Positions 5,334 through 50,208 of a stretch of 64,000 bases of DNA are shown piece after piece; the first letter of the stretch is position 1, and the number at the start of each line of letters is the position of its first letter. The notes beneath the pieces were generated by a model, which saw only the letters and a program-made list of their open reading frames with translations, made no database searches and was not told the origin of the DNA. A program made the translations under genes and the position numbers. The stretch covers positions 64,001 through 128,000 of the forward strand of contig JBFJCP010000002.1 in NCBI GenBank assembly GCA_041615815.1, written 5' to 3'. This DNA comes from Gemmatimonadales bacterium (lineage in GTDB: Bacteria > Gemmatimonadota > Gemmatimonadetes > Gemmatimonadales > GWC2-71-9).

Positions 5334-5723
5334 AAAGACCTCACTGCGCGATTCTGGTCGTCGGAAGGTAGCGGGGTCGACATTCCTTTAGAATGCCGGG
5401 ATTCACCGCAGGTGCCAGGCGGGCTGGGTGAACGGCCGGACGGACCTGCCAAACAGGCATCCTAGAGGGTCGGTCCGCGGTGGGCCGATGGTCATCGGGG
5501 AGGGGGCCAGCTTGGTGTTCCGCTCGATCTCGGGGGATCCCCTTCCGCAGTCTCGGATCAAGCGTTCGCCCGAACAGCCACTCTGGCAAAGACGCTCGTT
5601 CTCCGCGCCGACGTGCACGGGGTTCGACGCGCGGCGCTAGAAGTCGCCGGATCGGGATCAGCACCGGGCGGCTTCCGACGTCTCTCTGGGCAGGGTGCTT
5701 CTGGTGTTTGAGCGGGTGCGGAA

Positions 5724-5942
5724 CTAGCCCCGATCGTCAGGCCGCCCCTGATGACGTATCTCGAGCGCCAGCAGCAGCGTCGCCACCGTTCCCCCCACCA
5801 AGAGCGCAGCAAGCCAATTGACGGGACCACCCGCTCCAATCAACCCCGACCATACCGCCGAGACCAGCGTGTAGATGACCGCTGCGGTCACGAACGCCAC
5901 CAGCGCATAGCCGAGCAGCGGGAGGACTCGAGCCGCCGTCAC
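5724..5942 (-). CDS. Small two-TM membrane protein
   Basis: GTG at 5942 overlapping upstream stop; two hydrophobic segments. Confidence 0.55.
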   Translation of the reverse strand: MTAARVLPLLGYALVAFVTAAVIYTLVSAVWSGLIGAGGPVNWLAALLVGGTVATLLLALEIRHQGRPDDRG

Positions 5943-6238
5943 ATCCCCCGGGGCACCCGTTCCATTTCGATCCACGCCACGGGGCGGAACGGGTCCTCTC
6001 GAGCGTCTGTCGGCAGATCGGCATCCACGAACTGCCACAGGGGGCAGTCCTTGGGCCGGACCCCGAGCGGACAGGAGCCATCCTGGTTGCGGCACTCGTC
6101 GAGGCAGAAGGCCTGCGCGGCGCCTTTGACCCTGCTGGTACTCTTGGGAGCGAAGAGTGCCAGGCCTTCCGCTCGCATCACGATGAGGGCCATCACGGTG
6201 GCGAGAAGTACGATGGCAATGACCATGAGGGGTGGCAT
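5939..6238 (-). CDS. Small membrane-anchored protein with four Cys
   Basis: AAGGAGG RBS; N-terminal TM; CLDEC-x6-C-x8-C. Confidence 0.7.
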   Translation of the reverse strand: MPPLMVIAIVLLATVMALIVMRAEGLALFAPKSTSRVKGAAQAFCLDECRNQDGSCPLGVRPKDCPLWQFVDADLPTDAREDPFRPVAWIEMERVPRGM

Positions 6239-6325
6239 GGTCGCCTCCTTGAGCCGGTTTTCCTTTATAGAGTCGTGAATCGCGGGTGAAGGGCCGGTGA
6301 AGGAACCCTGAAGTCCCGCTCGCCG

Positions 6326-6730
6326 TCAGCGCGCGCTCTTCCGGCTCGCCCGCCAAGCGTCGATGCTGAAGCCCCCCGCCCCGACGGTGGACAGGTAGAG
6401 GAACACGAAGCAGTACACGGCCACGAGCTCGCCCCGATTGGCCCACCACCACAGGCCGCCCCTGGGCACGTGCATCCAGAAGTAGGCCACCGCCATCTCA
6501 CCGGACACCAGAAACGCGACCGGCTGGGTGAACACCCCGAAGACGATCAGCAGGCCACCAAAGAATTCGATGATCCCCGCAGCACCAAAACGGCTCATCA
6601 GCTCCACCGGCTCATCCCGACCGAACCAGGCAAACAGTTTCTGCGCGCCGTGGGACCAGTACATGAGACCGACCATGATGCGCATGGCAGGGTGGGCGAT
6701 GGGTCGAAGCTGCGACAAGAGCTGATTCAT
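6326..6730 (-). CDS. DoxX family membrane protein
   Basis: RIMVGLMYWSHGAQKLF, EFFGGLL, GAGGFSID motifs. Confidence 0.9.
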   Translation of the reverse strand: MNQLLSQLRPIAHPAMRIMVGLMYWSHGAQKLFAWFGRDEPVELMSRFGAAGIIEFFGGLLIVFGVFTQPVAFLVSGEMAVAYFWMHVPRGGLWWWANRGELVAVYCFVFLYLSTVGAGGFSIDAWRASRKSAR

Positions 6731-6764
6731 TCGCGGTATTCTCGGTCAGAGGGAAGTAGAGCGG

Positions 6765-7469
6765 TCACGGTCTGCGACTGATCACCCAAATATAGGCGGC
6801 GACCGCTTGCACGTCCGCGTCGCTGATGGCCGAACCTCCGCGTGGCGGCATGGCGATGCCGCCGCGCGACCGCTCCGCTGGCACCCCCGTCAAGATCTGC
6901 TGCACAATGGCCAGGTAGCTGCCTTTGGCATGGAGCCATACTTCGTCAGTCAGGTTGGGTCCGACGCGTCCCCGGGCGTCTCCGGCGTGGCAATTGTCGC
7001 ACCCGCCCTTGCCGTGGAAGATCTCTCCGCCCCACTCCACCATGGCCGGCGTGACACCGGGCGGAAAGGAGTCACCGGATTCCGGGTGACTGAGCTTCCA
7101 GACGAACGCCGCCACGGACTGGACTTCATGGTCCGTGAGATTCGCTCCACCTTTGGGCGCCATCGCCACGCCGCTCACTGATTTATTCGAGGGCACCCCC
7201 ACCAAGATCTGGCTCACCACCTCCAGGTAGTTCCCTTTGGCATGCCACCAATTGTCATCCGTGAGGTCGGGACCGAGCGAACCGTGGGCGTCCTCACCGT
7301 GACAGTTGGCACACCCTCCCGCGCCTTCGAAGATCTGTCTTCCATGACGGACCATGTGGGGGGTCACCCCCGGCGGGAGGGAGTCCGGGATGGCGATGTC
7401 CGCTTGTGCAGCCAACGGTGCGGCACTCACCAGCGAGCCGATGACGAGGAGAGTCGAAGTAAGCCTCAT
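6765..7469 (-). CDS. Periplasmic diheme cytochrome c (tandem-duplicated class I domain)
   Basis: Signal peptide; CANCH and CDNCH, each followed by GP(D/N)LTD..W and a distal Met (MAP/MPP). Confidence 0.9.
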   Translation of the reverse strand: MRLTSTLLVIGSLVSAAPLAAQADIAIPDSLPPGVTPHMVRHGRQIFEGAGGCANCHGEDAHGSLGPDLTDDNWWHAKGNYLEVVSQILVGVPSNKSVSGVAMAPKGGANLTDHEVQSVAAFVWKLSHPESGDSFPPGVTPAMVEWGGEIFHGKGGCDNCHAGDARGRVGPNLTDEVWLHAKGSYLAIVQQILTGVPAERSRGGIAMPPRGGSAISDADVQAVAAYIWVISRRP

Positions 7470-7564
7470 CGCAAGCACACCTCAGAGGAAAGAACACCGT
7501 GGTCGCTTCGTTGCCGGCCACAGGGGACGAGTCCGGAAGCACTCATCGGGGCGGGCGTCACGCC

Positions 7565-9517
7565 TCAGAATCGCCGCACCGCCCGAAAGGAAAACCGACT
7601 GACCGCGCCGGCTGTCCCGACGTTTCGACGCTGATGTTCGAACCGAATGATGGTTTCGACCTGCGCAAAGCGCCAGTTGGCCTCGATCAGCCCGCCGAGG
7701 AACCGCTCAAAACCAGCATCCGCGCGCTCGGTGCGCAGACCATCGAGACGCCCATACATCCGCACACCCAGGGGCGTCATCCAGACCACGGACGCGTTGC
7801 CGAACAGCATGGTGACCCGCTGGTCCTCGGACATGGACCGATTCCATCCTCCACCGAGCGACAGCCGCAGCCGCCGAACACTTGGGAGCGTGAGGGTACC
7901 CCGCGCCTCCCACACGGTGTTTCTGAATCGATCGGTGGTGCGCCGACGCCGCTCAGCCGAGATCCTGAGCAACCCCACGGGTGTGGGCTGTGTGCCGTCC
8001 AATTGTGTCACCATCTCGTTGAAATCGGGTATGGTCAGTGCACCGGCCTGGACGTCCGAATCCGTCCCCCGCAGGGACTGGCGGTGACGCAGCGTGAACC
8101 GCGATACGCCCAACGAGACGCTGTAGTTCCCCGTCACCGTGCGATCACGTCGTCGGGTGGCGGCGCGGAAGCGGTAGGTCACGAGCAGGACTTCGCCCAC
8201 CTGGATCCGACTCGTGATGGGCACGATGATGCGGAGGAACCCACCAACCTCCTGTACCTCGTAATCGAGATCCCGTAGGTACACGAGCGTCCCGTCCGCA
8301 CTGCGCACCATCAGGCTCGCTAAATCCACCTCCGGGTTGTCCAATTCGAACAGACGGGTGTCGTCGACGCGATGACGCTCATTCAAGACCGGGATGAAGC
8401 CATCGCCGGTGCCGTCTTCCCGCCGGCGCTCGTATCCCACCGCGACACCCCCACGCAGGCGGACAATTCGCGGCGTGGGGACCGTGAACTGAAGGCTCGG
8501 AATGATGGATCGCACCGATGTGGTGCGATTGATCAGCTCTGACGAGCGTGCGGAGCCTCGCACCGAACCGGACACCCACCGACTGATGCGGTATTCGATC
8601 CCAGCGCCGTAGCTCCTCGTGCTTGCGCGCGTTCCGTTGATTCGAGACGAAAGCACGCGGTACTGATAGTTCGTACCGAGCCAATGAGTGTGCTGCAAAC
8701 GTAAGCGTTCCGACCACGAGACCTGGCGATAGGGCGAAACCCGGCTGTCCCGATCGGTGAATCCGATACTCGACTGGAGAGTGCTTCCTTTGCCCCACCG
8801 AAAGCGATGATCGAACTGACCGTTCCAAGCCACGAAATCGTCGCCGCCCACGATGCCGTCGTAATTCGTTCGTTCGAGTCTCGCCGAGGCCTTGCTACTG
8901 TTGCCTGCGAATCGGAGAGTCCGCACCCGGTACGATCGTTCCACGGGATCCACCAGAGGCGTCGGATTCCACGTTTGGCTCACGGCCCGCCGGGAATACG
9001 AGAGGCGTACGGGAAACGGCCGCCAGCGAATTGACATGTTGGCATCCGTCGTCGTGTTGGTGTAATCCGTGAGGGTGAGCGCCCCGAGCGTCGAGGATCC
9101 GCCGGATCGGGTGGTCGCGAACGATAGCGAGATTGGGCGGCTCGAGAGGAGCCGCGCCGAGAAGTCGAGGTCGAGCGATCGGGAGACGACGGTATTGTCG
9201 AGCTGATTGGAAAGACCCTGGGTCAGGACCGGTCGCAGCGTCAGGCTCCAGGAGAAGGCACGGGTATCGATCAGCGAGCCCGAGAACGGGAGCGTGACCC
9301 ACTCGCGATATCGCTGATCGCTGAGGCCTGCGCGATCGCCGAAGGCCGTTGCCAGGGCACGGACCTCGATCCCCAGTTGGCCGCGACCACCCCCTACCCT
9401 GAGGAGACCTTGCGCCCCTCCTTCCTGCACGGCTCCGGCGATGCCGACTGCAACGCATGCCGCCATCGCCCCTACACGCCGACGGCGGTCACCGCGACGC
9501 GAGCGTATTCGAGACAT
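7565..9517 (-). CDS. Large outer-membrane beta-barrel protein (porin-like); start uncertain
   Basis: Signal-like N-terminus, many amphipathic beta strands, terminal Phe; adjacent to multiheme cytochromes. Confidence 0.75.
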   Translation of the reverse strand: MSRIRSRRGDRRRRVGAMAACVAVGIAGAVQEGGAQGLLRVGGGRGQLGIEVRALATAFGDRAGLSDQRYREWVTLPFSGSLIDTRAFSWSLTLRPVLTQGLSNQLDNTVVSRSLDLDFSARLLSSRPISLSFATTRSGGSSTLGALTLTDYTNTTTDANMSIRWRPFPVRLSYSRRAVSQTWNPTPLVDPVERSYRVRTLRFAGNSSKASARLERTNYDGIVGGDDFVAWNGQFDHRFRWGKGSTLQSSIGFTDRDSRVSPYRQVSWSERLRLQHTHWLGTNYQYRVLSSRINGTRASTRSYGAGIEYRISRWVSGSVRGSARSSELINRTTSVRSIIPSLQFTVPTPRIVRLRGGVAVGYERRREDGTGDGFIPVLNERHRVDDTRLFELDNPEVDLASLMVRSADGTLVYLRDLDYEVQEVGGFLRIIVPITSRIQVGEVLLVTYRFRAATRRRDRTVTGNYSVSLGVSRFTLRHRQSLRGTDSDVQAGALTIPDFNEMVTQLDGTQPTPVGLLRISAERRRRTTDRFRNTVWEARGTLTLPSVRRLRLSLGGGWNRSMSEDQRVTMLFGNASVVWMTPLGVRMYGRLDGLRTERADAGFERFLGGLIEANWRFAQVETIIRFEHQRRNVGTAGAVSRFSFRAVRRF

Positions 9518-10406
9518 GGCATCGCTGGCAATTGCCGAATCCGGCGCGGAAGGCGACGGCCCCATTGTGGCATGCGCCGCACGCCTCTCCAGCGTTGATG
9601 TCCTTCATCAGAATCGCGGTGGCTCCGGCCCGGGGCTCGAAGAGATCCACGTGACATGCTTTGCAGCGAAACCGGACTCGATGCAGCCAGTGTGGGAAGA
9701 TGGCGGGAGGCAGTTCGTCCGTGCGCACTCCGGCGGAGTTGCCGATGGAATCGGAGATCAGGGCAGCCGAGTCGAGGCTCACTCGCCGCATGGTGACGGT
9801 ACCGAGGAGTTCGGGCTGGGCGCGATCCGGAGGCATGGGGAGCGACTGGTGGCAGCGTTCGCAGCCGGAGTTCACCGGATAGGCCACCTTGCCATGGCAC
9901 TCTCCGCAGTACCGTCCCTGGAAGATGTCCGCCATGGATATGTTCGTTCCCCGGTAACGAAAAATGGGCCCGTGACACTGCCGGCAGTCCACCCACTCCG
10001 TGTGTGAGGAGTGCGGGAAGTAGGCATCGAACGTGGAGTCGGGACCTTGCAGGTAGAAGTCGAAGGCGAAGCGGAAGTCGGGCTCCCCCAAATGCCGAGC
10101 CCGGCCCGCAATCGCGGACCGAGGCTTGATTACGCCGTCGCGCAACGCAGCCATCCAATCGATATTGCCGGCGTGGTCGCGAGGCAACATCGCCGTCGCG
10201 CTGTCCGCGTTCAGCGTCCCTTCAATTGGAGGACGAACCGTATCCTCCGACACTACCAGCGGCGAGGCAGCTGGAACTCGAGCGACCGTGGCCGGCCGCT
10301 CCTCTCCCGACTTCGGAGGGATATCGAACACTGTGCCGGCCACCTGCCTGCATCCGATTACGAGCAGACAGACCGCTGCCAAGCGCCATCCCGACCCGCC
10401 CGTCAC
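9489..10406 (-). CDS. Hexaheme c-type cytochrome lipoprotein, two c7-like triheme domains
   Basis: Lipobox LVIGC; CRQCH, CGECH, CERCH, CKACH, CGACH, CQRCH; FPHxxH before each triplet. Confidence 0.9.
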   Translation of the reverse strand: MTGGSGWRLAAVCLLVIGCRQVAGTVFDIPPKSGEERPATVARVPAASPLVVSEDTVRPPIEGTLNADSATAMLPRDHAGNIDWMAALRDGVIKPRSAIAGRARHLGEPDFRFAFDFYLQGPDSTFDAYFPHSSHTEWVDCRQCHGPIFRYRGTNISMADIFQGRYCGECHGKVAYPVNSGCERCHQSLPMPPDRAQPELLGTVTMRRVSLDSAALISDSIGNSAGVRTDELPPAIFPHWLHRVRFRCKACHVDLFEPRAGATAILMKDINAGEACGACHNGAVAFRAGFGNCQRCHVSNTLASR

Positions 10407-11098
10407 TTCTGGTGACAGGTCAAGCAGAGCGCGCTACCCGCATTGGACAGACGCAGGAACGGGCGGTTGGCGGCCGTGTGCGGATTATGGCACGTACCGC
10501 ATTGCACCTTGCCGTCCACGTCGAGCACGAGACCCGCCGAGGAGATCGACCCCGCGGAGTTGAACGCTGGGTCCTGCCCCGGGTCATAGAGCACCGAGAC
10601 GGGGTGATCGTCCCGCAAATCCGTACCGAGATTCGTCAACCGGCCGGCTGGCAACGTTGTGCCGACAGCCGCACCGCCGGTATAGGAGTTCGGCGTATTG
10701 GTGATGACATCGAGCCCCACCGTCCCATCATGACAGCTCAGGCAGGCCAGCGAGATCCCGGTGGGCTGTCCATCGACCGTCATGTCGATCGTCGAGCTGT
10801 GGGTCGCGTCGTACATCTGGTACGTGGCAGTCGAAAAACCCCGGTTCCATAGGGGAGCGCTCACATCCCCACCGTGCGGCGTGTGACAGTACACACATAC
10901 CTCGCCATAGTCTTGCAGGGCCCCCGCACCAAACGAGTCTGCCTGGGCCGCGAACGACAGGTTGTGCAGCGTCTCCACCACGGTCGTCCCGTTGGGATAC
11001 GCGCCGGGCGGCGTGACCTGAGCCAGCACGCTCGCGGGAAGTGCGAGCAGCGCCGCGACGGCCAGGCCCACATAGCTTCTCTTCACCCTCATGGTCAT
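10403..11098 (-). CDS. omcE: Tetraheme cytochrome c, OmcE-like
   Basis: Signal peptide; CVYCHTPH..PLWNR, SLACLSCHDG, LGTDLRDDHPVS, CGTCHNPH..PFLR, LCLTCHQK; motif order and length match Geobacter OmcE as recalled. Confidence 0.8.
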   Translation of the reverse strand: MTMRVKRSYVGLAVAALLALPASVLAQVTPPGAYPNGTTVVETLHNLSFAAQADSFGAGALQDYGEVCVYCHTPHGGDVSAPLWNRGFSTATYQMYDATHSSTIDMTVDGQPTGISLACLSCHDGTVGLDVITNTPNSYTGGAAVGTTLPAGRLTNLGTDLRDDHPVSVLYDPGQDPAFNSAGSISSAGLVLDVDGKVQCGTCHNPHTAANRPFLRLSNAGSALCLTCHQK

Positions 11099-11170
11099 GC
11101 TCCTTTCAGCGATGGCGCTGATCGCCTCGCATCATCGACGCCGCAAAGCGCCGCATTGCCTTGTTGTCGT

Positions 11171-12403
11171 TCATGGCATGGTTGAACCGACCGGTGGCAA
11201 CAATACCGGCTCGGTAGCGGCGCTCTCCTCGGGCGCCTCCAAATACTCGAAGATCTGTACACGGGCGTTATAGCGGTCTGCGACGTAGATCCGGTCGCTC
11301 GCGTCGATGGCGATACCCATTGGGAGCCAGAATTCCCCCGGTCCGCTCCCAAAGCCGGCAAACCCGATGAGGAGACGCCCCTCCGAATCGAACACCTGCA
11401 CATTGTTGAACGCTGCATCCACCACGTAGACGTGCCCGTTGGAGTCTACGGACAGCCCTTTGGGTCGTGCGAATGCCCCGGGCGTGTCGCCCAGTCTGCC
11501 AAACTGCCGTTGAAACTCGCCCTGCGCATCGAACACCTGAACGCGGAAATTCATCGCGTCACAGACGTACATTGTCCCGTCCGGCGCCACCGCAACCGAT
11601 ACGGGGAAGAGAAACTCGCCCACACCATGGCCTCGGTTCTCCAGCATGTCGCGAGGTCCCGTCCGGAGCCGATGGGACGTGGGCTGCGCGGTCGCCCGAG
11701 CCGCAGCTTGCTGGTCTCTGGCCACGATATCACCCCGATCCCGGCCTACGCGTCGGACCAGGTTTCCATCCTGATCGAAGACCACAATCTGATGGAGGTA
11801 GCTATCGGCCACGTAGATGTGACCCGCGACGGGATCAACCGCCACGTCCACCGGATTCAGCAGAAGGGTCGGCCCGCCGAACGCGCGTACGAATTCCCCC
11901 GTCGGTCCGAACACCACCACGCGGCGACTCGTTGCGTCGGTGACATACACGTGGCCACGGCGATCGCCGCCCAGACCCATCGGTTTGATGAGTCGTCCTT
12001 GACCGGACCCGCCGAACACCTCGGCCTGCTTGGTTGTGTGGTCGAACACGAGAAGTTGACGTGACGTTGCGTCGGTAACGTAGACGCGGGTGCTGTCCTC
12101 AGCGTAGACGTCGGACGGCCGAAGGATGGAGATGTAGGGATCATCCTGAGCTCCCGCCAATGCGCGAGAGACACGGCCAAAGAACGAGGGGCGCTTGCCA
12201 AGGTCTGCTTCGCTGTGCAAGAGACCGAGGTAACGGATTCGTGCCGCTTCCGGCGGCGCCGGCCACACGAGGTCCTCGAGGGGCGCAATGCCGGTCTGGA
12301 CGCCCGCTCCACCACAAGCAGCCACGCCGAGCACCACGAAACCGATGAGACCCGCCAACGCCGCTACGCGCCGCGACATTCGTGTTGCATCGGGGTGGGC
12401 CAT
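11171..12403 (-). CDS. NHL-repeat beta-propeller lipoprotein
   Basis: GGAGGT RBS; lipobox VAAC; WPAPPE motif; repeated P.GxxxD..G.xYV.D..N.RVQVFD units. Confidence 0.9.
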   Translation of the reverse strand: MAHPDATRMSRRVAALAGLIGFVVLGVAACGGAGVQTGIAPLEDLVWPAPPEAARIRYLGLLHSEADLGKRPSFFGRVSRALAGAQDDPYISILRPSDVYAEDSTRVYVTDATSRQLLVFDHTTKQAEVFGGSGQGRLIKPMGLGGDRRGHVYVTDATSRRVVVFGPTGEFVRAFGGPTLLLNPVDVAVDPVAGHIYVADSYLHQIVVFDQDGNLVRRVGRDRGDIVARDQQAAARATAQPTSHRLRTGPRDMLENRGHGVGEFLFPVSVAVAPDGTMYVCDAMNFRVQVFDAQGEFQRQFGRLGDTPGAFARPKGLSVDSNGHVYVVDAAFNNVQVFDSEGRLLIGFAGFGSGPGEFWLPMGIAIDASDRIYVADRYNARVQIFEYLEAPEESAATEPVLLPPVGSTMP

Positions 12404-12411
12404 GTTACCTC

Positions 12412-13167
12412 CTACCAAAAGTGAGCGGTCGTCTCGCCCGGGTCAGCGAGATGACAAGTCGAGCACAGGGCCTGCCCCCCGTTGCTCATTCGCAGGAACG
12501 GTGCAAACTGCTGCGTGTGCGGATCGTGACACGTCCCGCACTGCACCTTGCCGCCGTACAGTCGAAGACCCGCCGCCTCGACCGCGGCCACGGAATTGAA
12601 GTCCGGATCCAATGAGGGGTCGTACAGAATCGAAATGGGATGCTGTGTGCGGAGATCGTCGTCAAACCACACGTTTTCCCAATTGATCCCTCCGTCTGGG
12701 TTACCGCCGGTGTGACAGTCTGTGGCGCAGCGTTCGATCACTTCGCCCAACGGAGTCGTCGCCGTGAACAGGGGCGGCGGGTTCGCGATTTCGTCGAGGC
12801 CGATCGTGCCATCGTGGCACGAGAGACACAGGAGAGACACCTCCGTCGGCTGCGGATCGGCAATCATATCGATCGTATTGCTCTCGTACATTCGATATGG
12901 CGTGGCCGGCAACTGCCGGTTCCACAGGGGGCGATCGGGTCCCCCACCGTGCGGCGTATGGCAGTACACGCACGCACTCCCGTAGTCCAGAAACATCGTG
13001 GACATCGGCGGGACTTGCGCCGTCCGCGCGAGGTTGTGGACCGTCTCCACCACCGTGGTTCCGTTAGGCCATTGCGCTCGGCATGGCCGGACCGCCATCG
13101 ACGCCATGACGACGATCACGGCCGCACCGCCGAGCGTCTTGGCCCACCACGTGCGCGCATACCACAC
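12412..13167 (-). CDS. Second OmcE-like multiheme cytochrome (4 CxxCH plus one CxxxCH)
   Basis: CVYCH, CLSCH, CGTCH, CSTCH plus CATDCH; clear paralog of 10403-11098. Confidence 0.85.
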   Translation of the reverse strand: MWYARTWWAKTLGGAAVIVVMASMAVRPCRAQWPNGTTVVETVHNLARTAQVPPMSTMFLDYGSACVYCHTPHGGGPDRPLWNRQLPATPYRMYESNTIDMIADPQPTEVSLLCLSCHDGTIGLDEIANPPPLFTATTPLGEVIERCATDCHTGGNPDGGINWENVWFDDDLRTQHPISILYDPSLDPDFNSVAAVEAAGLRLYGGKVQCGTCHDPHTQQFAPFLRMSNGGQALCSTCHLADPGETTAHFW

Positions 13168-13173
13168 CTCCTA

Positions 13174-13620
13174 TCACGAACCTCCACCAACGGTGATCGT
13201 ACCCTTCATTCCCAACGTCTCGTGGGGCGTGCACACGTACTTGTGCACCCCATCCGTGAAGCGTGCGTCGATGACCACGTCATAGGTTTCGCCGGGTGCC
13301 GTGAGGTACGGTCCCATCTGCCGGTCGCCTAGCTGCGACTCCGCAGGAACCTCGCGGAACTCGACGTTGTGCGGCATGCTTCCCGTCTGTTCGAACCGCA
13401 CGGTATCGCCCGGGTGCACAGTGACGTCGGCAGGCTCGAACCGGTATTCGGTCGTCGAGACATCCACCATCTTCACGACGACGACTTGACCGCGCGAGGT
13501 CGCTGGCTCGCTGACCGACCAACCGGCCAGCAACATGCTCAGAATGCCCGCCGCCGCTGCGCCGGCGAGCACCCGTGATAGGCTTGGCGTTCTGGCAATG
13601 CTCATGAAGCGTCCAGACAT
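13174..13620 (-). CDS. Plastocyanin/azurin-family cupredoxin
   Basis: Signal/TM segment; PHNVEF...YVCTPHETLGMKG type-1 Cu ligands; purine-rich RBS before ATG 13620. Confidence 0.9.
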   Translation of the reverse strand: MSGRFMSIARTPSLSRVLAGAAAAGILSMLLAGWSVSEPATSRGQVVVVKMVDVSTTEYRFEPADVTVHPGDTVRFEQTGSMPHNVEFREVPAESQLGDRQMGPYLTAPGETYDVVIDARFTDGVHKYVCTPHETLGMKGTITVGGGS

Positions 13621-13876
13621 TGTTGGCTTCCCTCCCCTTCCGTCCGTGTAATGGTCGATGCCAGTCAAGGACGCACAGGTGCAGCAGTCTCCCAGAGACT
13701 CGCCGCTCCAGCATCCACTTGGGTCCACTGCTACCCCACGACGATCGGCATTCGTGACCGCCGCACGTGGGTTTTCAGGCAGGAAGTGGACCGCACTCGG
13801 GCTTGGGAAAAGGTTGAGCTAATCCTCTATGGGACAAAGGCCTACGAAGGGAGGCAGGGCGAAGGTATTCGTGAGT

Positions 13877-13916
13877 GTGTGACACTCGGGGTCACACTGT
13901 GCCCCAACGTGACGCA
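13877..13916. promoter_or_regulatory. Tandem inverted repeats, candidate enhancer (UAS) for the sigma54 activator
   Basis: GTGTGAC-N7-GTCACAC followed 20 bp later by TGTGCC-N7-GACGCA. Confidence 0.5.
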
Positions 13917-13938
13917 CGTTGGTGCTTCCGAAGCAGCG

Positions 13939-15372
13939 TCAGAACGCCATATCGAGGCGAAGCCAAACAGCGCGGGGTCGGCGACCGCCGAGAGTGGCGC
14001 TGTGTTGATCCTCAGTAAACAGTTCTGCTTCCAGGACACCCCGTACGTTTTGGCGAATGAGGAAAATCGCGCCCGGCATGATGCGCGTCTGGTCGAATCC
14101 CCCGACCGTGAAACCGTCGGCCCGTATGGACGCAGGAATCTCAGCGGAGAAAGTGTCCACCTTGAAGGAGCCCAACAGCCAGGGAAAGAACAGGTACTCC
14201 CCCTTCACGAAAAAGCTGGAGCTGCCAAGGTCACCATCGGCGTCGGCGCCCCACGGACGGTCGTGCTGTCCCCAGACATGTCCGAAACCGAGATCCACCG
14301 GTCCCCATAGCGCTCGAGCGGCGACGCCGAACGCGCGGTGATCGTCCTGACGATCTCCCGCCGCGGGCTGCGCGCCCAAATACCCGAAGTGTTCGAGCGT
14401 GAGCGATCGGTCCAGGAGTTGGCCACCGCCTCCCAGTAGCGGCCCCGTGTCGCCACGGTACCGACCATCGAGCCCGAGCCCGCCCAGCTTGTAGCGAACC
14501 TTGTAGTAGAAATCTTTCCGTCGATTATTGTCGGCTGTCGTTGCATTCGTGCCTTGGGCGACGCCAACAGCGTACGCCAAACGGCCACTCACCATTCCAT
14601 TCAGCTCGATAGACGGCTGTGACTGCCGCAGCTGGAATTCGTTGATTGATTGCAGGGTCGCGCCGCTGATCGGATCCTCGAGCTCGAGATCGGAGACGCG
14701 GTAGTCCTGCCAACGAAAGTTCTGTCGCGCCGCACGATCGATTTGTCGATCGGCGAACGTGAACAGGTACAAGTTTTGGACACCCACCCAGAGGTTGAGG
14801 GTTCGAGCCGGAAGCCACGGCAAGACATCCTGCACTTCCACCTTGGCCTGGAGAAGCTCGACCCCACCTTCTCGCGACCATTCCGATTCCAAGAACACAC
14901 TGATCTGCTCACCGAGTGTCGTTCCGGCGAGGAGATAGACTTCGTGAGGGAGGCGAAAGTCGAGCCGGGCATCGTCGGTAGCGTCACGAGTGAGCCCTAC
15001 GTCATTCTGGATACGCAAGGCTATCGGTGGCGTACCAGGCAACTCACCCGGCCAAATACCGCGGGGCCAGATGTCTTTCCATTCGTCCGATCCCAACGGC
15101 ACCGGTCGGTCACGGCGAAGCAGCGCGTCGTTGTCGGGAAACCGGTAGCCATTGAGGCGGAACGCTTCACCGAGCACGTTCAGTTTGGGCGCCGCCGTAT
15201 GGCACGTGGTGCAGCTCGTGCGATATTTACGTGCGAACGCGGGGATGCGGTCGCTCGGCTGGCTCACTCGTGGATTCGCCGCGCTCAACGTCACGACTAG
15301 CAGGCCGGCAGTCATGCCCCAAACCGGTACGGACGTGTAACGGGCCGCGCGGTGTGATCGTGATCGATCCAT
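13939..15372 (-). CDS. cyc2: Cyc2-like monoheme cytochrome-porin fusion
   Basis: IPAFARKY-x3-CTTCH-x3-PKLN..GEAFRLNGY N-terminus, then beta-strand-rich body ending in Phe. Confidence 0.7.
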   Translation of the reverse strand: MDRSRSHRAARYTSVPVWGMTAGLLVVTLSAANPRVSQPSDRIPAFARKYRTSCTTCHTAAPKLNVLGEAFRLNGYRFPDNDALLRRDRPVPLGSDEWKDIWPRGIWPGELPGTPPIALRIQNDVGLTRDATDDARLDFRLPHEVYLLAGTTLGEQISVFLESEWSREGGVELLQAKVEVQDVLPWLPARTLNLWVGVQNLYLFTFADRQIDRAARQNFRWQDYRVSDLELEDPISGATLQSINEFQLRQSQPSIELNGMVSGRLAYAVGVAQGTNATTADNNRRKDFYYKVRYKLGGLGLDGRYRGDTGPLLGGGGQLLDRSLTLEHFGYLGAQPAAGDRQDDHRAFGVAARALWGPVDLGFGHVWGQHDRPWGADADGDLGSSSFFVKGEYLFFPWLLGSFKVDTFSAEIPASIRADGFTVGGFDQTRIMPGAIFLIRQNVRGVLEAELFTEDQHSATLGGRRPRAVWLRLDMAF

Positions 15373-15408
15373 CGACGGTTCTCTCCCAGCCAGCAGTTGG
15401 CCGCCGGC

Positions 15409-16005
15409 CTACTTGGGTCTCAAGTCCAGCTGCAAGATCAGGTTACCGTCTCGCGGAACGGAGATCGGCTGTTCGAATGATCGCAGCCGCCGGTGCCACA
15501 CCCGCAGCGTGTAGGCCCCTGGCGGCACACTGTCGATGCGGAACGACCCGTCCGGGGACACGACGGCATGGTGCGGCGTCGGGACCACCAGGACGTGGGC
15601 AACCATCTCGGGGTGGACGTGACAGAGAATCACGTGCGGCCCAATACCCATAAAGCGGTGTGTTCGGGATTGGCTGCGGGGGTACGTGCCGAGATTGAAA
15701 GGGCTAGGAAGGCGGGTCGGGCTGAACACATTGTGCAGCACGGGATCGGAATTCCGAAACTCGACCACGGTTCCCGGGACCACAACCTGGACGGTGGGCC
15801 GGAACCGCAGGCCTCTTTGGTCGATCAAGAGCGGAGTGTCCGGCACCGCATATGTCGTGTCGCGCGCAGCTTCCAAATACACGACAGCATCCGTTACCGG
15901 GACACTCGGCGCCTGCACGATTCCCTCGACCGATCCGAGTCCGCCATCGTTCGGACCCACGGAGACGCACAGGAGCGCTCCGACCGCGACCGCGCGCCTA
16001 CGCAT
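15409..16005 (-). CDS. Exported cupredoxin / carboxypeptidase-regulatory-like domain protein
   Basis: NSDPVLHNVFS...CHVHPEM Cu-type ligands; GSFRIDSVPPGAYTLRVWH. Confidence 0.8.
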   Translation of the reverse strand: MRRRAVAVGALLCVSVGPNDGGLGSVEGIVQAPSVPVTDAVVYLEAARDTTYAVPDTPLLIDQRGLRFRPTVQVVVPGTVVEFRNSDPVLHNVFSPTRLPSPFNLGTYPRSQSRTHRFMGIGPHVILCHVHPEMVAHVLVVPTPHHAVVSPDGSFRIDSVPPGAYTLRVWHRRLRSFEQPISVPRDGNLILQLDLRPK

Positions 16006-17395
16006 CGTCGGTTCCTCCACCCTTTCCGTCATCCCCTTCAAGCCAGCGATGGACTGTTCTTCGGCTCACCCCAGCGACTCGCGCGGCCTGCGAGACGTTC
16101 CCACCCGTATGCTCCAGAAGGTGTCGCACGTACCGACCTTGAAAAATCCTCACCGCCTGCGCACGCGCCTCGTCATAGGGACGCGGTGGTGCATCGAGGG
16201 TGTCGGCAAGCATCCGGCTTCCCGGACGAAGGGCTTCCGGGAGATCGGCCAGCGTGATGCGACCGTCACTGTCGAGCACGATGAGCCGCTCAGCGAGATT
16301 GCGAAGCTCACGGACGTTCCCCGGCCAGCGGTGAGCTTCGAGTGCATCCCACACTTCGGGTGATACCAGCGGTGGTTCCTTCCCAAGTTCCGCGGCGGAT
16401 TGGACGAGGAACTTCTGAGCCAACATGACTATATCCCCACCGCGCTCCCTGAGTGGCGGTAGCCGAAGCGGAACGACGTTCAGCCGGTAATAAAGGTCCT
16501 CCCGGAATCGTCCCGCCGCTACCGCTGCCTCAAGGTCGGTGCTGGTGGCGGCGACCAATCGAATATCGATGTCGATCAGAGCCGAACTCCCCAAACGGCG
16601 GATCTCCCGTTCTTCGAGCGCTCGCAGCAGTTTGGATTGGAGACCGAGCGTGAGCTCGGCGAATTCGTCGAGGAAAACGGTTCCACCATTACCCTCTTCC
16701 AACAGACCGGTCTTGCGGCCAACGGCCCCCGTGAACGCTCCACGTTCATACCCGAACAGTTCGCTCTCCATCAGGCCCTCGGGCAAGGCTGCACAATCCA
16801 CCGGGACGAACGGCGATTCCCGCCGGGTACCGTGTGTGTGGAGATAGCGTGCAATCAGTTCCTTCCCCGTGCCACTCTCACCGGATAGCAAGACATTGGC
16901 ATCGGTCGGAGCAACTTTGCGGACCTGATCCATGAGGGTCTGAAATGCTGCGCTCGATCCCACGATCTCATCCACGCGACTGCCCCGTGCTATCTGTTCC
17001 CGCAGAGCGAGGTTTTCGATGGCGAGCCCGCGATGCCGAATGGCCCGCTGGACGGCCACCTCCAACTGATCTCCGGAAAACGGTTTAGTGATGTAGTCGA
17101 AGGCACCCTCGCGTATGGCGGAGACGGCGGATGCCACGGACCCAAACGCCGTCATGATGATGACCGCAACCGTCGGATCGTCCGCCAGGGCAGCGGTCAG
17201 CACCGTCATCCCGTCCACATCGGGCATCCGGAGATCGAGTAGCAGAACATCGGGCTGATAGTCTCGCAACACCTCCCGTACCCGGGCCGCGTCCGAAAGA
17301 GTTCGACACCGGTGCCCGTGACGGGCCAGCAGACGCTCGCAGTTCTCGAGCATCGCGGGCTCATCATCCACGATCAGGACTCGCGCTCGGTCCAT
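15998..17395 (-). CDS. Sigma54-dependent response regulator (NtrC/AtoC family)
   Basis: REC domain (VLIVDDE, DLRMP), GESGTGKE, GAFTGA, C-terminal Fis-type HTH. Confidence 0.95.
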   Translation of the reverse strand: MDRARVLIVDDEPAMLENCERLLARHGHRCRTLSDAARVREVLRDYQPDVLLLDLRMPDVDGMTVLTAALADDPTVAVIIMTAFGSVASAVSAIREGAFDYITKPFSGDQLEVAVQRAIRHRGLAIENLALREQIARGSRVDEIVGSSAAFQTLMDQVRKVAPTDANVLLSGESGTGKELIARYLHTHGTRRESPFVPVDCAALPEGLMESELFGYERGAFTGAVGRKTGLLEEGNGGTVFLDEFAELTLGLQSKLLRALEEREIRRLGSSALIDIDIRLVAATSTDLEAAVAAGRFREDLYYRLNVVPLRLPPLRERGGDIVMLAQKFLVQSAAELGKEPPLVSPEVWDALEAHRWPGNVRELRNLAERLIVLDSDGRITLADLPEALRPGSRMLADTLDAPPRPYDEARAQAVRIFQGRYVRHLLEHTGGNVSQAARVAGVSRRTVHRWLEGDDGKGGGTDDA

Positions 17396-19689
17396 GCAGT
17401 CTCCTGGAGCGGCAGGGGCAAAGACACCACGAAGCGGGTCCCGCCATGCGCTCGGTCTTCCACCCAAATCTCACCATCATGTCGGTCAATGATGCTCCGA
17501 CAGACGGCGAGCCCCAACCCGGTGCCGCGACCCGAGGTCTTCGTTGTGAAGAATGGCTCAAAAATCCGGTGACGCAGTTCCTCCGGCACGCCGGAACCTG
17601 TGTCATCCACGATGATCTCCACCGCGCTGCGATCGGCTGATCGTCGAATGGTGAGCGTCACCTTGCCGCCCGACGGTGTGGCGTCCGCCGCGTTCAAGAG
17701 CAGGTTGAGGCATACGGTCTCGATCGCGGGCTCACTTCCCGAGACTTGCGGCAGCCCCTCAGCGATCTCGGCATCCAGACCGATGTTTCGAGAGGAAAAC
17801 GTTCGTTCGAGGACACGCGCGAGTCGGGCGGCAACATTATCGAGCGCCACAAGTCCCCATTCGTTGGATTCCTGATTGCGAGCGAGACTCAAGAGATCGC
17901 GCGTGACCTCACCAAGTCTTCCCACATGTTCTCGCAACACCGAAAGATCACGAACCAGGAAATCCCCATCCTCATCCGAGCACCGCTGACGGATCTCATC
18001 TTCCATGCACTCGAGACGGTTTCCGATGACTGCAATCGGGTTGTTGAGCTCGTGCGCAATCCCGGCCGCCATGACACTCACAGCGGCGATCCGCTCCGAA
18101 CGCCGCAAGTGCTCTTCCAGACGCTTCTGATCCCGGGTATCGCGAAGAATAAGAGAGTAACCAAAAGGTTCTCCATCCTGATCGCGAATCAGCGTTTGGG
18201 TCAAGCTCAGTGCGATGCGTTCTCCGTCCTTCGATTTTCTCTCCGTGTTGAGGTTGACCACCGCACCGCGTCGTTCGACCTCACGCGCGATGTACCGTTG
18301 CTCGGCCGACGGACCGCTCGAGAGCAGATCAGCGACGTTTCGGTTCAGCGCTTCGGCGGCCTTGTACCCGAAGAGCTCTTCGGCACCCCGGTTCCACACC
18401 CGAACACGTTGGTCCAAGTCCAGGCCGATGATGGCGTCTGCCGAGCGTTCGAGGATGTGTGACAGTTCCGCGTGCGTTTGGCGAAGCGCCTGCGTGCGCT
18501 CTTCGACCAAGCCCTCCAGGTTCTGCCGATGTGCCGTGAGCTGATCCGCCATGGCAGTGAATTCCGCAGCGAGATCCTCCAGCTCATCGTTGGTCTCGAC
18601 GCGCACCGGGATGGTCAACTGGCCCCGAGCGAGACGTTCGGCGCTGCGGCGCAGCCGATAGATCGGCTCCGTGAATTGGCGCGCACCCACCGTCGCGAGC
18701 CCGATGACCGCCCCTAGCATGATCAGCGCGCCCAGTGATACCCATCGGCGAAAGTCCACCACGGAAGCCTCAAGCTGCGAGAGCGGGACGATCCGATAGA
18801 GCACGGGCGCGGGTGCGCCGGTCGCCGTTGTCCACAGTGGGAGAAACCGAACGATGGCACTGTCAGCAGCTTCGAACGTTCCGCTCGCCCCGGCCCGCAG
18901 TGCACGCGCGATGTCTTCCGAAAGCTCGTCTGCGAGGTCTACCTCGTCTCTTGATGCTAACAGGCTGCCCCAGTCGCGCTTGCGGGACGAGTGATAGAGA
19001 TACAAACCATCTGAGCCGATGAGCCCTGTCGTACCCTGAAGGCTGGGGGAACCGTCTTCGATGCCGTCGAACAGCACTGTCGCATACGCTTCACCCACGA
19101 CCGCGCCGGCCAGTACGCTATCGGGTTCATGAACTGGAACGACCACGGCGATCGCCGGAATCGTAGCCAACGTCGAGTCCGCCTCCACATCGGCGCGCAA
19201 TTCGATGGGCAGAACCAGAGTGCTGCCCGGCCCCAACGCAGCAGCCTGAGCGGCGTAGTAGAATCCGCTCCCATCCCCCTCCGATCCGCCAACACGGCCG
19301 TGGTCTGCGCTTCGCACGAAGCGTAAAACGCCATTTTCGTCGACGACTTTGATCTGGAAGAGCGACGGATGTCCGCCGAGAAACACCTGTAACCAAGCTT
19401 CCGCCATCGCCCACTCCCTCGTCGTGGCACCCATCAGGAGCGGGCGGAACAGGACCGCAGCGAGAAACTCCACATCCCGCTCGACTTGTTGAAGACGCCC
19501 GGCGGTCTGCTGCTGCGCCAATTCGAGATCATGTTCTAGCGTCGTCGTTGCCGTGACGCGTAACTGCCGTGAAAACATCTGGGTGGCGAACAACGCTGCA
19601 CCTGCCAGCGGCACAATCGCCAGGAGCGCGAACGCGATCGCCAGCTTGAGACGGATCGAGAGACGGGGAAAGAGTTTGTTAATATTCAT
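17374..19689 (-). CDS. Sensor histidine kinase (periplasmic sensor, HAMP, PAS, HisKA, HATPase)
   Basis: Two TMs; AHELNNP H-box; NAADA, DTGSG, FFTTK, GTGLGL boxes. Confidence 0.95.
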   Translation of the reverse strand: MNINKLFPRLSIRLKLAIAFALLAIVPLAGAALFATQMFSRQLRVTATTTLEHDLELAQQQTAGRLQQVERDVEFLAAVLFRPLLMGATTREWAMAEAWLQVFLGGHPSLFQIKVVDENGVLRFVRSADHGRVGGSEGDGSGFYYAAQAAALGPGSTLVLPIELRADVEADSTLATIPAIAVVVPVHEPDSVLAGAVVGEAYATVLFDGIEDGSPSLQGTTGLIGSDGLYLYHSSRKRDWGSLLASRDEVDLADELSEDIARALRAGASGTFEAADSAIVRFLPLWTTATGAPAPVLYRIVPLSQLEASVVDFRRWVSLGALIMLGAVIGLATVGARQFTEPIYRLRRSAERLARGQLTIPVRVETNDELEDLAAEFTAMADQLTAHRQNLEGLVEERTQALRQTHAELSHILERSADAIIGLDLDQRVRVWNRGAEELFGYKAAEALNRNVADLLSSGPSAEQRYIAREVERRGAVVNLNTERKSKDGERIALSLTQTLIRDQDGEPFGYSLILRDTRDQKRLEEHLRRSERIAAVSVMAAGIAHELNNPIAVIGNRLECMEDEIRQRCSDEDGDFLVRDLSVLREHVGRLGEVTRDLLSLARNQESNEWGLVALDNVAARLARVLERTFSSRNIGLDAEIAEGLPQVSGSEPAIETVCLNLLLNAADATPSGGKVTLTIRRSADRSAVEIIVDDTGSGVPEELRHRIFEPFFTTKTSGRGTGLGLAVCRSIIDRHDGEIWVEDRAHGGTRFVVSLPLPLQETAWTERES

Positions 19690-24341: not shown

Positions 24342-24968
24342 ATGGCACGAGGTTCAGCTGAAGCTGCGCTTTCGCCCCACGTACGCAAGAAACACCGCCA
24401 ACGGCGTACCGAGATCTTGCACGCCGCACTCCGCGCATTCCGCGACAAGGGGTACCACCCCACTACACTCGAGGACATTGCGGAGTACTTGGGCGTCCGC
24501 AAGACGGCGCTCTACCACTACTTCCCGGACAAGGAGGCGATTCTCTACGAGTGCCATCGGGAGTCGCTCGCGGAGGTGGAACGACACCTCCGGGAAGCCA
24601 AGGAGCTGTTCGACGCGGCCCCGGACCGTCTCCGCTACATCATCCGCGAGCACGTGCGGGTGATGACCGAGACGCTCGAAGGCTCGCCCCTCGCCTTCGA
24701 GATCCCCGCCCTCGCACCCAAGCACCAGAGAAAGATCGTGGCTGCGCGCGACCGATATGAGCGCGGCCTACGGAGCATCATCGCTACCGGGATCGATGGC
24801 GGCGAGTTCCGCCACACCGATCCCAAGATTGCGACGTTCGCCATTCTCGGCGCCATCAATTGGATCGCGCGATGGTATCGACCCGAAGGCTCGCTGCATG
24901 CTCCTGAGCTGGGCGACGCCTTCGCCGAACACTTAGTAGGAGGTCTCACATGCCGGCGGGGACGCTAA
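24342..24968 (+). CDS. TetR family transcriptional regulator
   Basis: ILHAALRAFRDKGY..TTLEDIAEYLGVRKTALYHYF; C-terminal GAINWIARWYRPEG. Confidence 0.95.
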   Translation: MARGSAEAALSPHVRKKHRQRRTEILHAALRAFRDKGYHPTTLEDIAEYLGVRKTALYHYFPDKEAILYECHRESLAEVERHLREAKELFDAAPDRLRYIIREHVRVMTETLEGSPLAFEIPALAPKHQRKIVAARDRYERGLRSIIATGIDGGEFRHTDPKIATFAILGAINWIARWYRPEGSLHAPELGDAFAEHLVGGLTCRRGR

Positions 24969-26014
24969 CTCGAGAATTCACAGCGCGGACACCCGATTCC
25001 TTCGCGTTCCGCGACATCCGGTACACCAAAGACGACCAGGTGGCATGGATCACCATTAACCGGCCGGACGCCTACAACGCCTACTCCACTACCGCGCTCG
25101 AGGAACTGGCCACGGCCTTTCGGGACGCGAGTTTCGACGACGCGGTGGGGGTCATCGTCTTCACCGGCGCCGGCGACCGCGCGTTCTGCACGGGCGGCGA
25201 CGTCAAGGAATACGCCGAGAGCTATGTCTCGACTCCGCGAGACTACTGGAAGTACATGGCCCTGTTTCGCGCCTACATCGAAAGCATCCTCAACACCGGC
25301 AAGCCAGTAGTGGCGAGGCTCAATGGGATGGCCGTGGGCGGGGGAAATGAGAGTCAGCTCGCCTGCGATCTGACAGTCATGGCGCAACACACCTACATCA
25401 AACAGGTCGGGACGCACGTGGGGTCGGTGGCTTGCGGCGGCTCCACCCAGTGGCTCCCCATCGTCGTGGGCGACAAACGCGCCCGCGAGATTCTCTTCCT
25501 CAACGAGCCGATTCCCGCCGAGCAGGCGCGCGAGTGGGGCCTCGTGAACTGGGTGGTTCCGTCGGTTCGGAAAGAGGGTGAGTGGGTCGACCACGCGTCA
25601 GCCGAGGAGATTCGCAAGGCGCAACGGGGGAAAGACGGCTACGCCATCGATCTGTCCAAGCTCGATGCCTTTGTCGCAGACCTGTGTCGACGACTCCTGG
25701 CTTCCTTCCCGGAGTGCACCCGCTACACGAAGCAACAGCTCAACTTCTGGAAGGATCTGGCCTGGCATTCCACCGTACGGCATGCGCAAGACTGGCTCTC
25801 CCTGCACTACGCGTGTTGGGAGCCGGTGGAGGGCATGCAGGCGTTCGTCGAGAAGCGAAAGGCGGATTACGGCATGTTGCGTCACCGGGCCGCTCAGGGG
25901 CTGCCAACGGAAACGCCTTGGGGGGCGTTCGTGAACCATTGTGCGGCGTGCGGGGCCAAGTGCTTGCCCGCCGATCACACCTACTGCGGCGCATGCGGCC
26001 GATCGCTCTCGTAA
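24950..26014 (+). CDS. oah: 6-oxocyclohex-1-ene-1-carbonyl-CoA hydrolase (ring-opening crotonase)
   Basis: AFCTGGD, GMAVGGGNE; C-terminal CxxCG...CGxCG ribbon; context of benzoyl-CoA reductase genes. Confidence 0.8.
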   Translation: MPAGTLTREFTARTPDSFAFRDIRYTKDDQVAWITINRPDAYNAYSTTALEELATAFRDASFDDAVGVIVFTGAGDRAFCTGGDVKEYAESYVSTPRDYWKYMALFRAYIESILNTGKPVVARLNGMAVGGGNESQLACDLTVMAQHTYIKQVGTHVGSVACGGSTQWLPIVVGDKRAREILFLNEPIPAEQAREWGLVNWVVPSVRKEGEWVDHASAEEIRKAQRGKDGYAIDLSKLDAFVADLCRRLLASFPECTRYTKQQLNFWKDLAWHSTVRHAQDWLSLHYACWEPVEGMQAFVEKRKADYGMLRHRAAQGLPTETPWGAFVNHCAACGAKCLPADHTYCGACGRSLS

Positions 26015-26703
26015 CCGGCGGAGCCGGCGGTATCGGTCAGGCCATCGTCCAGACCCTGACACCCCACGCCACGGTCGTCGCCGTGGATCGGGTCTCTTGT
26101 GACACACCCGTCGATGGACACTTCAGGGAAACGGATGTGGCGGATCCATCGGCGGTGCGGGAAACCGTGGCGTCCGTGGCGCAGCAGTACGGTGGACTCG
26201 ACTGGGTCGTGTGCGCCGCCGGCATCATCCGCGACAAGGTGAGCTGGAAAATGACGGATGACGACTGGCAGTCCGTCATTGACACGAATCTCACAGGCGC
26301 ATTCAATACCGCGCGGGCTGCTGCCCCGTTCTTGCGCCGCTCGACGGGCGGCCGGCTCGTCCTCATTGGATCCATCAACGGTACGCGTGGACGCTTTGGG
26401 CAGGCCAACTACGCCGCTTCCAAGGCCGGCCTCGTGGGCCTCGGTCGCTCTCTGGCGTTGGAACTTGCGCGAGACGGCGTCACGGTGAACATCGTGACCC
26501 CCGGCTTCATCGATACCCCCATGACGCATGCACTCCCGTCCGAGATGCGTCGGCTTGCGGTGACCCGCACACCGCTCGGTCGGGCTGGGTCTCCCGATGA
26601 CGTCGCATCCGCCGTGCGTTTTCTCTTGAGTCCCGAGGCGGGGTTCATCACCGGGACCGTGCTACCGGTAGACGGTGGCCAGCTCCTGGGGGAGGTGGCG
26701 TGA
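25993..26703 (+). CDS. SDR oxidoreductase (FabG / 3-hydroxyacyl-CoA dehydrogenase-like)
   Basis: TGGAGGIG, YAASK, PGFIDTPM, VDGG. Confidence 0.9.
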   Translation: MRPIALVTGGAGGIGQAIVQTLTPHATVVAVDRVSCDTPVDGHFRETDVADPSAVRETVASVAQQYGGLDWVVCAAGIIRDKVSWKMTDDDWQSVIDTNLTGAFNTARAAAPFLRRSTGGRLVLIGSINGTRGRFGQANYAASKAGLVGLGRSLALELARDGVTVNIVTPGFIDTPMTHALPSEMRRLAVTRTPLGRAGSPDDVASAVRFLLSPEAGFITGTVLPVDGGQLLGEVA

Positions 26704-27461
26704 TGGCAGCCGTTCGCACTTCACTGGAGAGCGGTGTCGGCCGCTTGGTCGTGAGTCATCCACCCGTCAACATTCTCACACGAGATGTGCTGGCCGGCAT
26801 CCGGGCGGGCCTCGAGCAGCTCGCGCCCGATCCCTCGCTTCGCGTGCTTCTGCTATCGGCCGCAGGAAAGCACTTCTCGGCGGGTGCCTCGGTGGAAGAG
26901 CATTTGCCTCCACTGTACGACGACCTCATTCCGGAATTCATGGCAACGGTGAGCGCGGTGGACGCCTTCCCGCTACCGGTCATCGCCGCCGTCCAGGGAA
27001 GGTGCTTGGGTGGTGGCCTGGAGGTGGTCTTGGCGGCGGACATCATCGTGGCGGCCACGAATGCCAGGTTCGGACAACCGGAGATTCTGTTGGGCGTCGT
27101 TCCACCGGCTGCGTGTGCGCTTCTCCCGACGCTGACGTCGCGGGGGGTGGCGGCCCAGCTGGTGTACACGGGTGATCCCTTGAGTGCTGAAGAGGCTCGT
27201 GCTGCAGGCATCGTCACGCAGGTGGTGGAAGACGACGAGCTCGAGGATGCGGCGCTCGCCCTTGCCGGACGGATCGCCAGGCACAGCGGCGCCGCCCTGC
27301 GCATCGCCAAACAATCACTCCGTCATGATGAGTCCGGGCGAACCAACGCGTTCTCGAGAGCGACATCTCTCTACGTGGAATCGCTGATGCGGACGCAGGA
27401 CGCCGTGGAAGGACTACAGGCCTTCCTGGATAAGCGCGAGCCCGTGTGGAGTCACCAATGA
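26700..27461 (+). CDS. dch: Enoyl-CoA hydratase, probable cyclohexa-1,5-diene-1-carbonyl-CoA hydratase
   Basis: [36 protein letters not shown]; immediately upstream of reductase genes. Confidence 0.75.
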
Positions 27462-28627: not shown

Positions 28628-28666
28628 GAACGCAGGAGAGGCGGGGATGACCAGAGGAGACAGAAC

Positions 28667-29977: not shown

Positions 29978-29981
29978 GGTA

Positions 29982-43194: not shown

Positions 43195-43352
43195 ATGCTT
43201 TTCCGTGGATTCCCGCAAGAGGCTGACCTCACGCGACCTGAGCGAACATCGGGCTACCCGGCTTACTGGGTCCTGGATCCTCATCCGCCCTTCAATCCCC
43301 GTTCAGCCCAGACCAGCTATCTACCTGACGAATGCCGGAAAGGAGGCGTTGC

Positions 43353-50035: not shown

Positions 50036-50208
50036 GGAGTTGCTCCCGTGTATCGGCTGGTAGCCGGTGCTCGTGAAGGCGCGTTCATAACCAGCTCATA
50101 TTTAATTATCGCATTATATCTATGTTCTACGTGCCGTGCTGGACCCGCAGCGCCCAGCGCGCTCGCGAACGCGGCCATGAGTCATCCGCCCACAAGGAGC
50201 GACCGTCG

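Follow-up and report, generated by a model that had tools for sequence, protein, structure and literature searches.

Gene content of the cluster

The window, the 64,000-nucleotide stretch of DNA that was analysed from a Gemmatimonadales genome, contains a run of minus-strand genes that includes an ORF encoding a tetraheme cytochrome, here called P0001. In minus-strand order, the genes are as follows.

17374..19689, minus strand: sensor histidine kinase (HAMP, PAS)
15998..17467, minus strand: sigma-54-dependent response regulator, a frequent upstream neighbour of related clusters
15409..16041, minus strand: secreted protein with a carboxypeptidase-regulatory-like domain
13939..15372, minus strand: porin-like protein with one N-terminal CxxCH (a monoheme protein)
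13174..13728, minus strand: cupredoxin (plastocyanin/azurin family)
12412..13167, minus strand: OmcE paralog (P0002/P0123), four CxxCH plus a loop CxxxCH, tail His249
11171..12418, minus strand: NHL-repeat beta-propeller with a lipobox-like Cys35, a lipoprotein as predicted from its sequence
10403..11098, minus strand: P0001, OmcE-family tetraheme cytochrome and likely filament subunit, with a Sec-type signal, four CxxCH and a two-residue tail
9489..10406, minus strand: six-heme cytochrome with two c7-type triheme domains (TIGR04257, two stretches) and a lipobox-like Cys19
7565..9565, minus strand: likely large outer-membrane beta-barrel of 666 aa, by distant profile match
6765..7478, minus strand: di-heme class I cytochrome c (two monoheme domains), carried by only some related clusters

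Contigs from two further studies agree with this layout, which is thus not an assembly artefact: two from a second study span 5500-11343 and 11340-16533, with their join bridged by a third-study contig (10819-12210). The double-c7 gene overlaps the P0001 stop by 4 nt. Scans for sigma-70 promoters, terminators and sigma-54 motifs gave matches at or below chance. The genome encodes CcmE along with two cytochrome c assembly proteins; ResB was not found there.

Neither Pfam nor NCBIfam gave a match for the 666-aa protein, and its Atlas clusters hold hypothetical proteins only. In a profile comparison with hhalign, run without a negative control, it aligned over 600 columns at 14% identity with the barrel encoded after omcE in 13 Geobacter-type loci (E 2.2e-5, probability 76.6). 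The two protein sets mostly share an ending of basic residues plus Phe, and we regard the 666-aa protein as distantly homologous to the barrel of Geobacter-type omcE clusters. A barrel together with a propeller is the criterion by which PMC13712944 chooses nanowire candidates. The P0001 cluster has both, the propeller as a predicted lipoprotein and the barrel through the distant profile match and the C-terminal Phe. Across related loci, an NHL gene is in view in 68 of 79 genome loci and a barrel of the 666-aa profile in 39 of 79.

Several other features of the window and genome were recorded. Upstream of the OmcE cluster, here (13174-19689) as at L012, L013, L017, L020 and L090, recurs a module made up of the kinase, the sigma-54 regulator, the secreted protein, the porin-like monoheme protein and, mostly, the cupredoxin. 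Among Atlas clusters with an assigned family, the one closest to the porin-like protein shows Porin_O_P on 20% of its members, a lead only. A benzoyl-CoA reductase-like cluster at 24950-33004 (oah-, dch-, bcrC- and bcrB-like genes, two activase-like genes and a had-like gene, all below equivalog cut-offs) hints at anaerobic aromatic degradation in the host. The gene at 43332-44423 encodes a protein with eight CxxCH motifs, the N-terminus of which resembles that of a lipoprotein; NCBIfam gave no match for it at E 1e-15. A Type III sulfide:quinone reductase is encoded at 50122-51474 (NF049943, above cut-off), near a gene at 52305-53357 labelled rhodanese-like from its sequence. On contig C20 of this genome (G000), which also carries Ccm genes, the segment 55770-88602 contains eight open frames that each encode 8-18 CxxCH; we read these frames as a second large multiheme system of the genome.

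P0001 as a member of the OmcE family

The ORF at 10403-11098, which lies on the minus strand, translates to 231 aa with four CxxCH motifs, as the earlier note had stated; we place the motifs at 68, 119, 200 and 225. P0001 has nine His residues (45, 72, 75, 100, 123, 165, 204, 207 and 229). The Sec signal without a lipobox that had been proposed fits the sequence: the N-terminus is basic and then hydrophobic, with S-V-L-A followed by Gln27, and the first Cys is C68, so there is no lipobox. An AGGAG lies 7 nt from the second ATG versus 1 nt from the first, and a database entry for the protein (P0003) is 229 aa long; for these reasons translation probably starts at the second ATG (11092), giving a product of 229 aa.

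When all PDB sequences were searched, only two matched P0001 at E < 0.5: 7TFS, the OmcE of Geobacter sulfurreducens (E 6.7e-30, residues 19-231), and 9YUQ, the bundled OmcE of Desulfuromonas soudanensis (E 1.1e-26, residues 25-231). A profile built from 118 P0001 homologs retrieved these two and nothing else. The full-length match bears out the OmcE-family membership that the earlier note had proposed, and every OmcE motif that it listed appears, in the listed order, when P0001 is aligned with 7TFS. Identity to L184, a 7TFS-type protein from genome G456 that was equated with the 7TFS chain by eye, is 75/193 core residues (39%); the two OmcEs known to polymerise are 41% identical to each other (PMC13712944). 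An AlphaFold2 model of P0001 was of low confidence (pLDDT 55); its best match was 7TFS, at Foldseek E 0.016, and a wide VIA structure search with it found no match at Z >= 2, a result that says nothing about the fold.

All eight OmcE His, four in the CxxCH motifs and four distal, are present in P0001. The spare His previously listed as HNL, TPH, DHP and NPH are H45, H75, H165 and H207. Among the best 120 homologs, seven of the eight never vary, and 119 homologs have H75. The ninth His of P0001, H100, lies beyond this set; it is His in 46/120 homologs, with Tyr, Trp or a gap seen at this position elsewhere, which rules it out as a family-wide ligand. Since all eight OmcE His are kept, the inter-subunit ligand is retained, whichever His serves. 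The alignment is full length and that ligand is not lost, two of the points on which the earlier reading had been made to depend. Nearly all P0001-type proteins (117/118) end two residues past the last CxxCH, on Lys, as do 7TFS and 9YUQ; we infer that this abrupt end after heme 4, without a cis extension, is a defining trait of an OmcE subunit.

The gene context is also similar, with a propeller gene upstream and a barrel gene downstream in Geobacter as here. P0001 differs from Geobacter OmcE in its core identity of 39% and in its partner cytochromes, which are a double c7 and an OmcE paralog here versus 8- and 9-23-heme proteins in Geobacter-type loci. In a quick tree with deep support below 95, P0001 falls outside the Geobacter omcE-cluster group; with partner genes that differ and a tree that separates them, we do not place it in the ortholog group of canonical Geobacter omcE. 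Inspection of the downstream ORFs brought no glycosyltransferase block to notice. D. soudanensis OmcE shares with P0001 the ligand set and the barrel and propeller cluster, and its bundling loops are described as not conserved (PMC13712944). OmcS (6EF8; PMC6584659) resembles OmcE-type proteins in its sequence-order heme stack and in the single inter-subunit His on its penultimate heme, and differs in having six hemes and no sequence match to P0001 in the PDB searches.

OmcE homologs are very common, with 7,203 of 8,000 scored candidates matching P0001 at E 1e-10 or better, and the P0001 gene alone is therefore ordinary. In a search of the Desulfuromonadia class, 42/61 genomes matched. Closer to home the distribution is patchy: a P0001-like gene occurs in 2/40 related genomes, in neither of the two of the same genus, and in 22 of the 401 genomes of the phylum, this one included, a count for which only seven candidates were scored per genome. 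The closest homologs are labelled Eisenbacteria and Gemmatimonadota, which suggests transfer of the P0001-type gene. A Gemmatimonadales host is likely, since one protein from a genome labelled Gemmatimonas has an identical counterpart in a genome assigned to the host's order. For the phylum, the literature covered was silent: PMC13712944 lists five phyla without Gemmatimonadota, a name that does not occur in its main text, and the portions of PMC13264449 and PMC11495043 covered, on gemmatimonads and OmcE, nanowires or multiheme cytochromes, describe no such cluster.

Taken together, the earlier reading of P0001 as an OmcE-like filament subunit is the likeliest, and on present evidence P0001 probably polymerises head-to-tail into a heme filament.

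A five-heme paralog and a long form of OmcE

The paralog gene lies 1.3 kb upstream of P0001 and was not described in the earlier note. Its product is 51% identical to P0001 and is the only other P0001 homolog found when the genome was searched. It contains a loop CxxxCH (C147-H152), Met55, and His249 ten residues past the last CxxCH, and so carries a fifth heme motif in a protein of OmcE length, the mark of a five-heme OmcE-like protein. Its model (pLDDT 86.7) matches 7TFS at Foldseek E 5e-9 and superposes on it with Z 13.8 and rmsd 2.9 Å over 175 residues; the fold match to OmcS (6EF8) is weak (Z 3.7).

Five-heme OmcE homologs have been noted before (PMC11492766), and those in Fig. 5 of PMC13712944 likewise carry an additional heme motif, placed in a loop, on an OmcE fold. 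The paralog goes beyond that family in its conserved tail of 10-13 residues with a His, in the CxxxCH spacing found in some of its relatives, and in adjoining a four-heme OmcE; neither the tail nor the pairing is described in the portions of PMC13712944 covered. We aligned 111 paralog homologs, leaving out P0208, P0232 and P0001-type matches. The extra loop heme motif is present in 105/111 of them (76 CxxCH, 29 CxxxCH) versus 0/118 P0001-type proteins, and the tail His occurs 9-11 residues past the last CxxCH in 107/111. A Met 7-15 residues ahead of the first Cys is found in all 108 paralogs scored, in 17/24 short-tailed five-heme forms, in 23/112 P0001-type proteins, in 7/108 four-heme forms and in none of 76 long forms, which are described below.

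In quick trees built with the tails removed, the paralogs form one clade (SH-aLRT 99) whose sister group consists of short-tailed five-heme proteins from KSB1, Calditrichota and G342 (support 95). Two of five such sister proteins have only nine His (L024 and L165) and three have ten, and two other proteins, L021 and P0250, keep the tail His with the loop motif broken. The nine-His sisters and the tail His that survives a broken loop motif together indicate that the loop heme and the tail His are decoupled. We infer that the loop heme of the paralog takes the Met as its ligand, which would leave the tail His free for a core heme. Three distant proteins that have both the loop motif and the tail His carry His, not Met, near the usual Met position. 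An origin of the paralog as a truncated 11/12-heme protein was considered and rejected, as its clade is sister to the short-tailed five-heme proteins and lies away from the long form. One further tail-His paralog, at L012:9360-10174, is split over two frames by a frameshift or sequencing error and was left out of the paralog counts.

Classification of OmcE domains across the window and 175 loci gave 111 short-tailed four-heme, 24 short-tailed five-heme, 76 long and 16 tail-His proteins, with seven fragments or others. The long form is an 11/12-heme protein whose N-terminal part is a complete OmcE domain (nine examples, E 1e-43 to 1e-57). Past this domain, a His stands at +10 in 57/76 and a CxxCH-xx-H at heme 5 in 76/76; the long form thus continues the OmcE repeat and provides in cis what would otherwise come from the next subunit. 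Both it and the paralog look like self-capped end subunits. Long forms placed after a second propeller gene, as at L018, L019, L020, L040, L047, L185, L196 and others, are candidate anchor or tip subunits.

The two types were not seen together in any of the 91 loci holding either one: 14 loci have a tail-His protein with a short form, two a tail-His protein alone, 44 a long form with a short form, and 31 a long form alone. Whole-genome searches found no long form in seven tail-His genomes, and a search of the present genome with the long-form profile found none. Because the genomes are kin, the flanks limited, some genomes repeated and the paralogs a single clade, we treat this exclusivity as a pattern, not a statistic.

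Not every OmcE locus has either form. Among 20 loci hand-picked from the Desulfuromonadia-class matches, 13 are Geobacter-type omcE clusters with neither a long form nor a paralog within about 10 kb, which implies that OmcE polymerises there without an in-cluster cap. Four have a short form, a propeller, a five-heme protein, a barrel, a propeller and a long form, and the remaining three adjoin 57-58-heme proteins. L017 also has neither form, and one genome holds both cluster types (L184, L185). The known filaments come from clusters without an in-cluster cap, and the literature consulted shows no filament imaging for the P0001 cluster type.

Two further arrangements were observed. In three Desulfuromonadia-class genomes (L181:9631-, L186:1639-, L200:9560-), the OmcE-like gene lies beside a gene for a 57-58-heme protein of about 2,700 aa and a sigma-54 two-component pair. 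Within the same phylum as our genome, L166-L179 combine a divergent four-heme OmcE-like gene with a propeller, a double c7, a barrel, and 7-heme and 13/14-heme proteins; the last two did not score as OmcE domains.

Filament ends and competing explanations

In OmcE and OmcS, one heme per subunit is ligated by a His of the neighbouring subunit (PMC9473688, PMC12954529, PMC12307469). The hemes of OmcS stack in sequence order and the open heme is the fifth of six (PMC6584659). OmcE has been mapped onto OmcS hemes 3-6, yet its open heme is named as heme 2 (PMC12203936), and the sections consulted of PMC11492766 and of bioRxiv 2025.11.06.686851, 2023.06.12.544705 and 2026.02.26.708365 give no OmcE ligand numbers. 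Taken with an open OmcS heme 5, that mapping implies that OmcE heme 3 is the open one. The inter-subunit donor is presumably the His of CxxCH-xx-H (H75 in P0001), following the pattern of OmcS and the Shewanella small tetraheme cytochrome. P0001 keeps both N-terminal His candidates for this role. The +10 His of the paralog and long form is not an exact positional equivalent of the CxxCH-xx-H His.

These features suggest the following model. P0001 would be exported by Sec, receive its hemes through Ccm, and stack head-to-tail into an insulated heme nanowire, which the neighbouring beta-barrel may export or mount and the c7 lipoprotein may feed with electrons. One heme per subunit, probably heme 3 by analogy with OmcS, would stay open until filled by the N-terminal His of the next subunit. 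If the open heme does belong to the C-terminal pair, a His ten residues past heme 4 could close it. The paralog could then dock on the wire through its N-terminal end and close off its opposite end, where its tail His would occupy the heme site that a following subunit normally fills, so that the wire would end there. Its fifth heme would be exposed and His/Met-ligated.

How OmcE wires end is an open question in PMC13712944 (2026), where initiation, termination and anchoring of cytochrome nanowires are described as unknown. That paper sketches a hypothetical anchor with nine His, four hemes and an OmcE fold, for which its D. soudanensis candidate lies outside the cluster, whereas the candidate here lies inside it. 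It also reports no tip candidate with exposed hemes in OmcE operons. On sequence grounds, the paralog would fit both the anchor and the tip descriptions and is a candidate cap, tip or anchor subunit. Among the titles surveyed on caps, anchors and assembly, none concerned an OmcE end subunit.

Overall, we favor, if only slightly, a P0001 nanowire that is exported or mounted by the barrel and ended by the five-heme paralog. The filament and the paralog cap taken jointly are put forward only tentatively. Equally speculative is the broader proposal that OmcE clusters encode their own end subunit, namely the long form in most phyla, replaced in a clade of Gemmatimonadota, Eisenbacteria and Rhodothermota by a paralog cap whose exposed His/Met heme may serve for electron exit or entry.

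Alternatively, P0001 and the paralog may form a short finite complex, such as a 9-heme heterodimer, at or in the barrel, giving a porin-cytochrome conduit and no micrometre wire. With one-to-one expression, a self-capped partner in the cluster would halt growth immediately. The barrel is only distantly homologous, the cluster type is unlike the Geobacter omcE cluster, and one genome holds both types. We nevertheless think this explanation unlikely, because P0001 has the two-residue C-terminus and all the ligands of polymerising OmcE, and because clusters with several short-tailed copies (L033, L062, L066, L069) and the partnerless L017 suit polymer subunits better.

Quite improbable, in our judgement, is that P0001 is a filament subunit and the paralog a 'leaky' five-heme subunit, its tail His on the fifth heme, which would co-polymerise or build its own wire and cap nothing. 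With ten His for five hemes, the paralog has exactly the ligand count that a polymer needs, the five-heme OmcE-like nanowire family proposed in PMC13712944 has an exposed extra heme, and sister short-tailed five-heme proteins are the sole OmcE of their clusters (L024, L165). In those same two proteins, however, the loop heme is present although no His is to spare; the Met goes with the loop heme, the tail His outlasts loss of the loop motif in L021 and P0250, and a 12-residue tail would presumably sit at the stacking interface of the next subunit. That P0001 is a self-contained monomeric carrier with H100 as its ninth ligand seems very improbable, for although its nine His formally match the anchor description of PMC13712944, the variability of H100 noted above and the 63/112 P0001-type proteins with only eight His speak against it.

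The P0001 gene alone is, by its features, a routine OmcE homolog, one of thousands; the novelty is the conserved OmcE paralog within the cluster, which makes nanowire termination directly testable. The locus provides a compact test set of a subunit, a candidate cap, a propeller, a c7 cytochrome and a barrel, with single-residue predictions at His249 and Met55, and it directs attention to the 11/12-heme protein with an OmcE domain that many other clusters carry. Should the wire prove real, extracellular electron transfer through nanowires would be extended to Gemmatimonadota, an abundant and little-studied phylum, and if the paralog is indeed a cap, it would answer how cytochrome nanowires start or stop.
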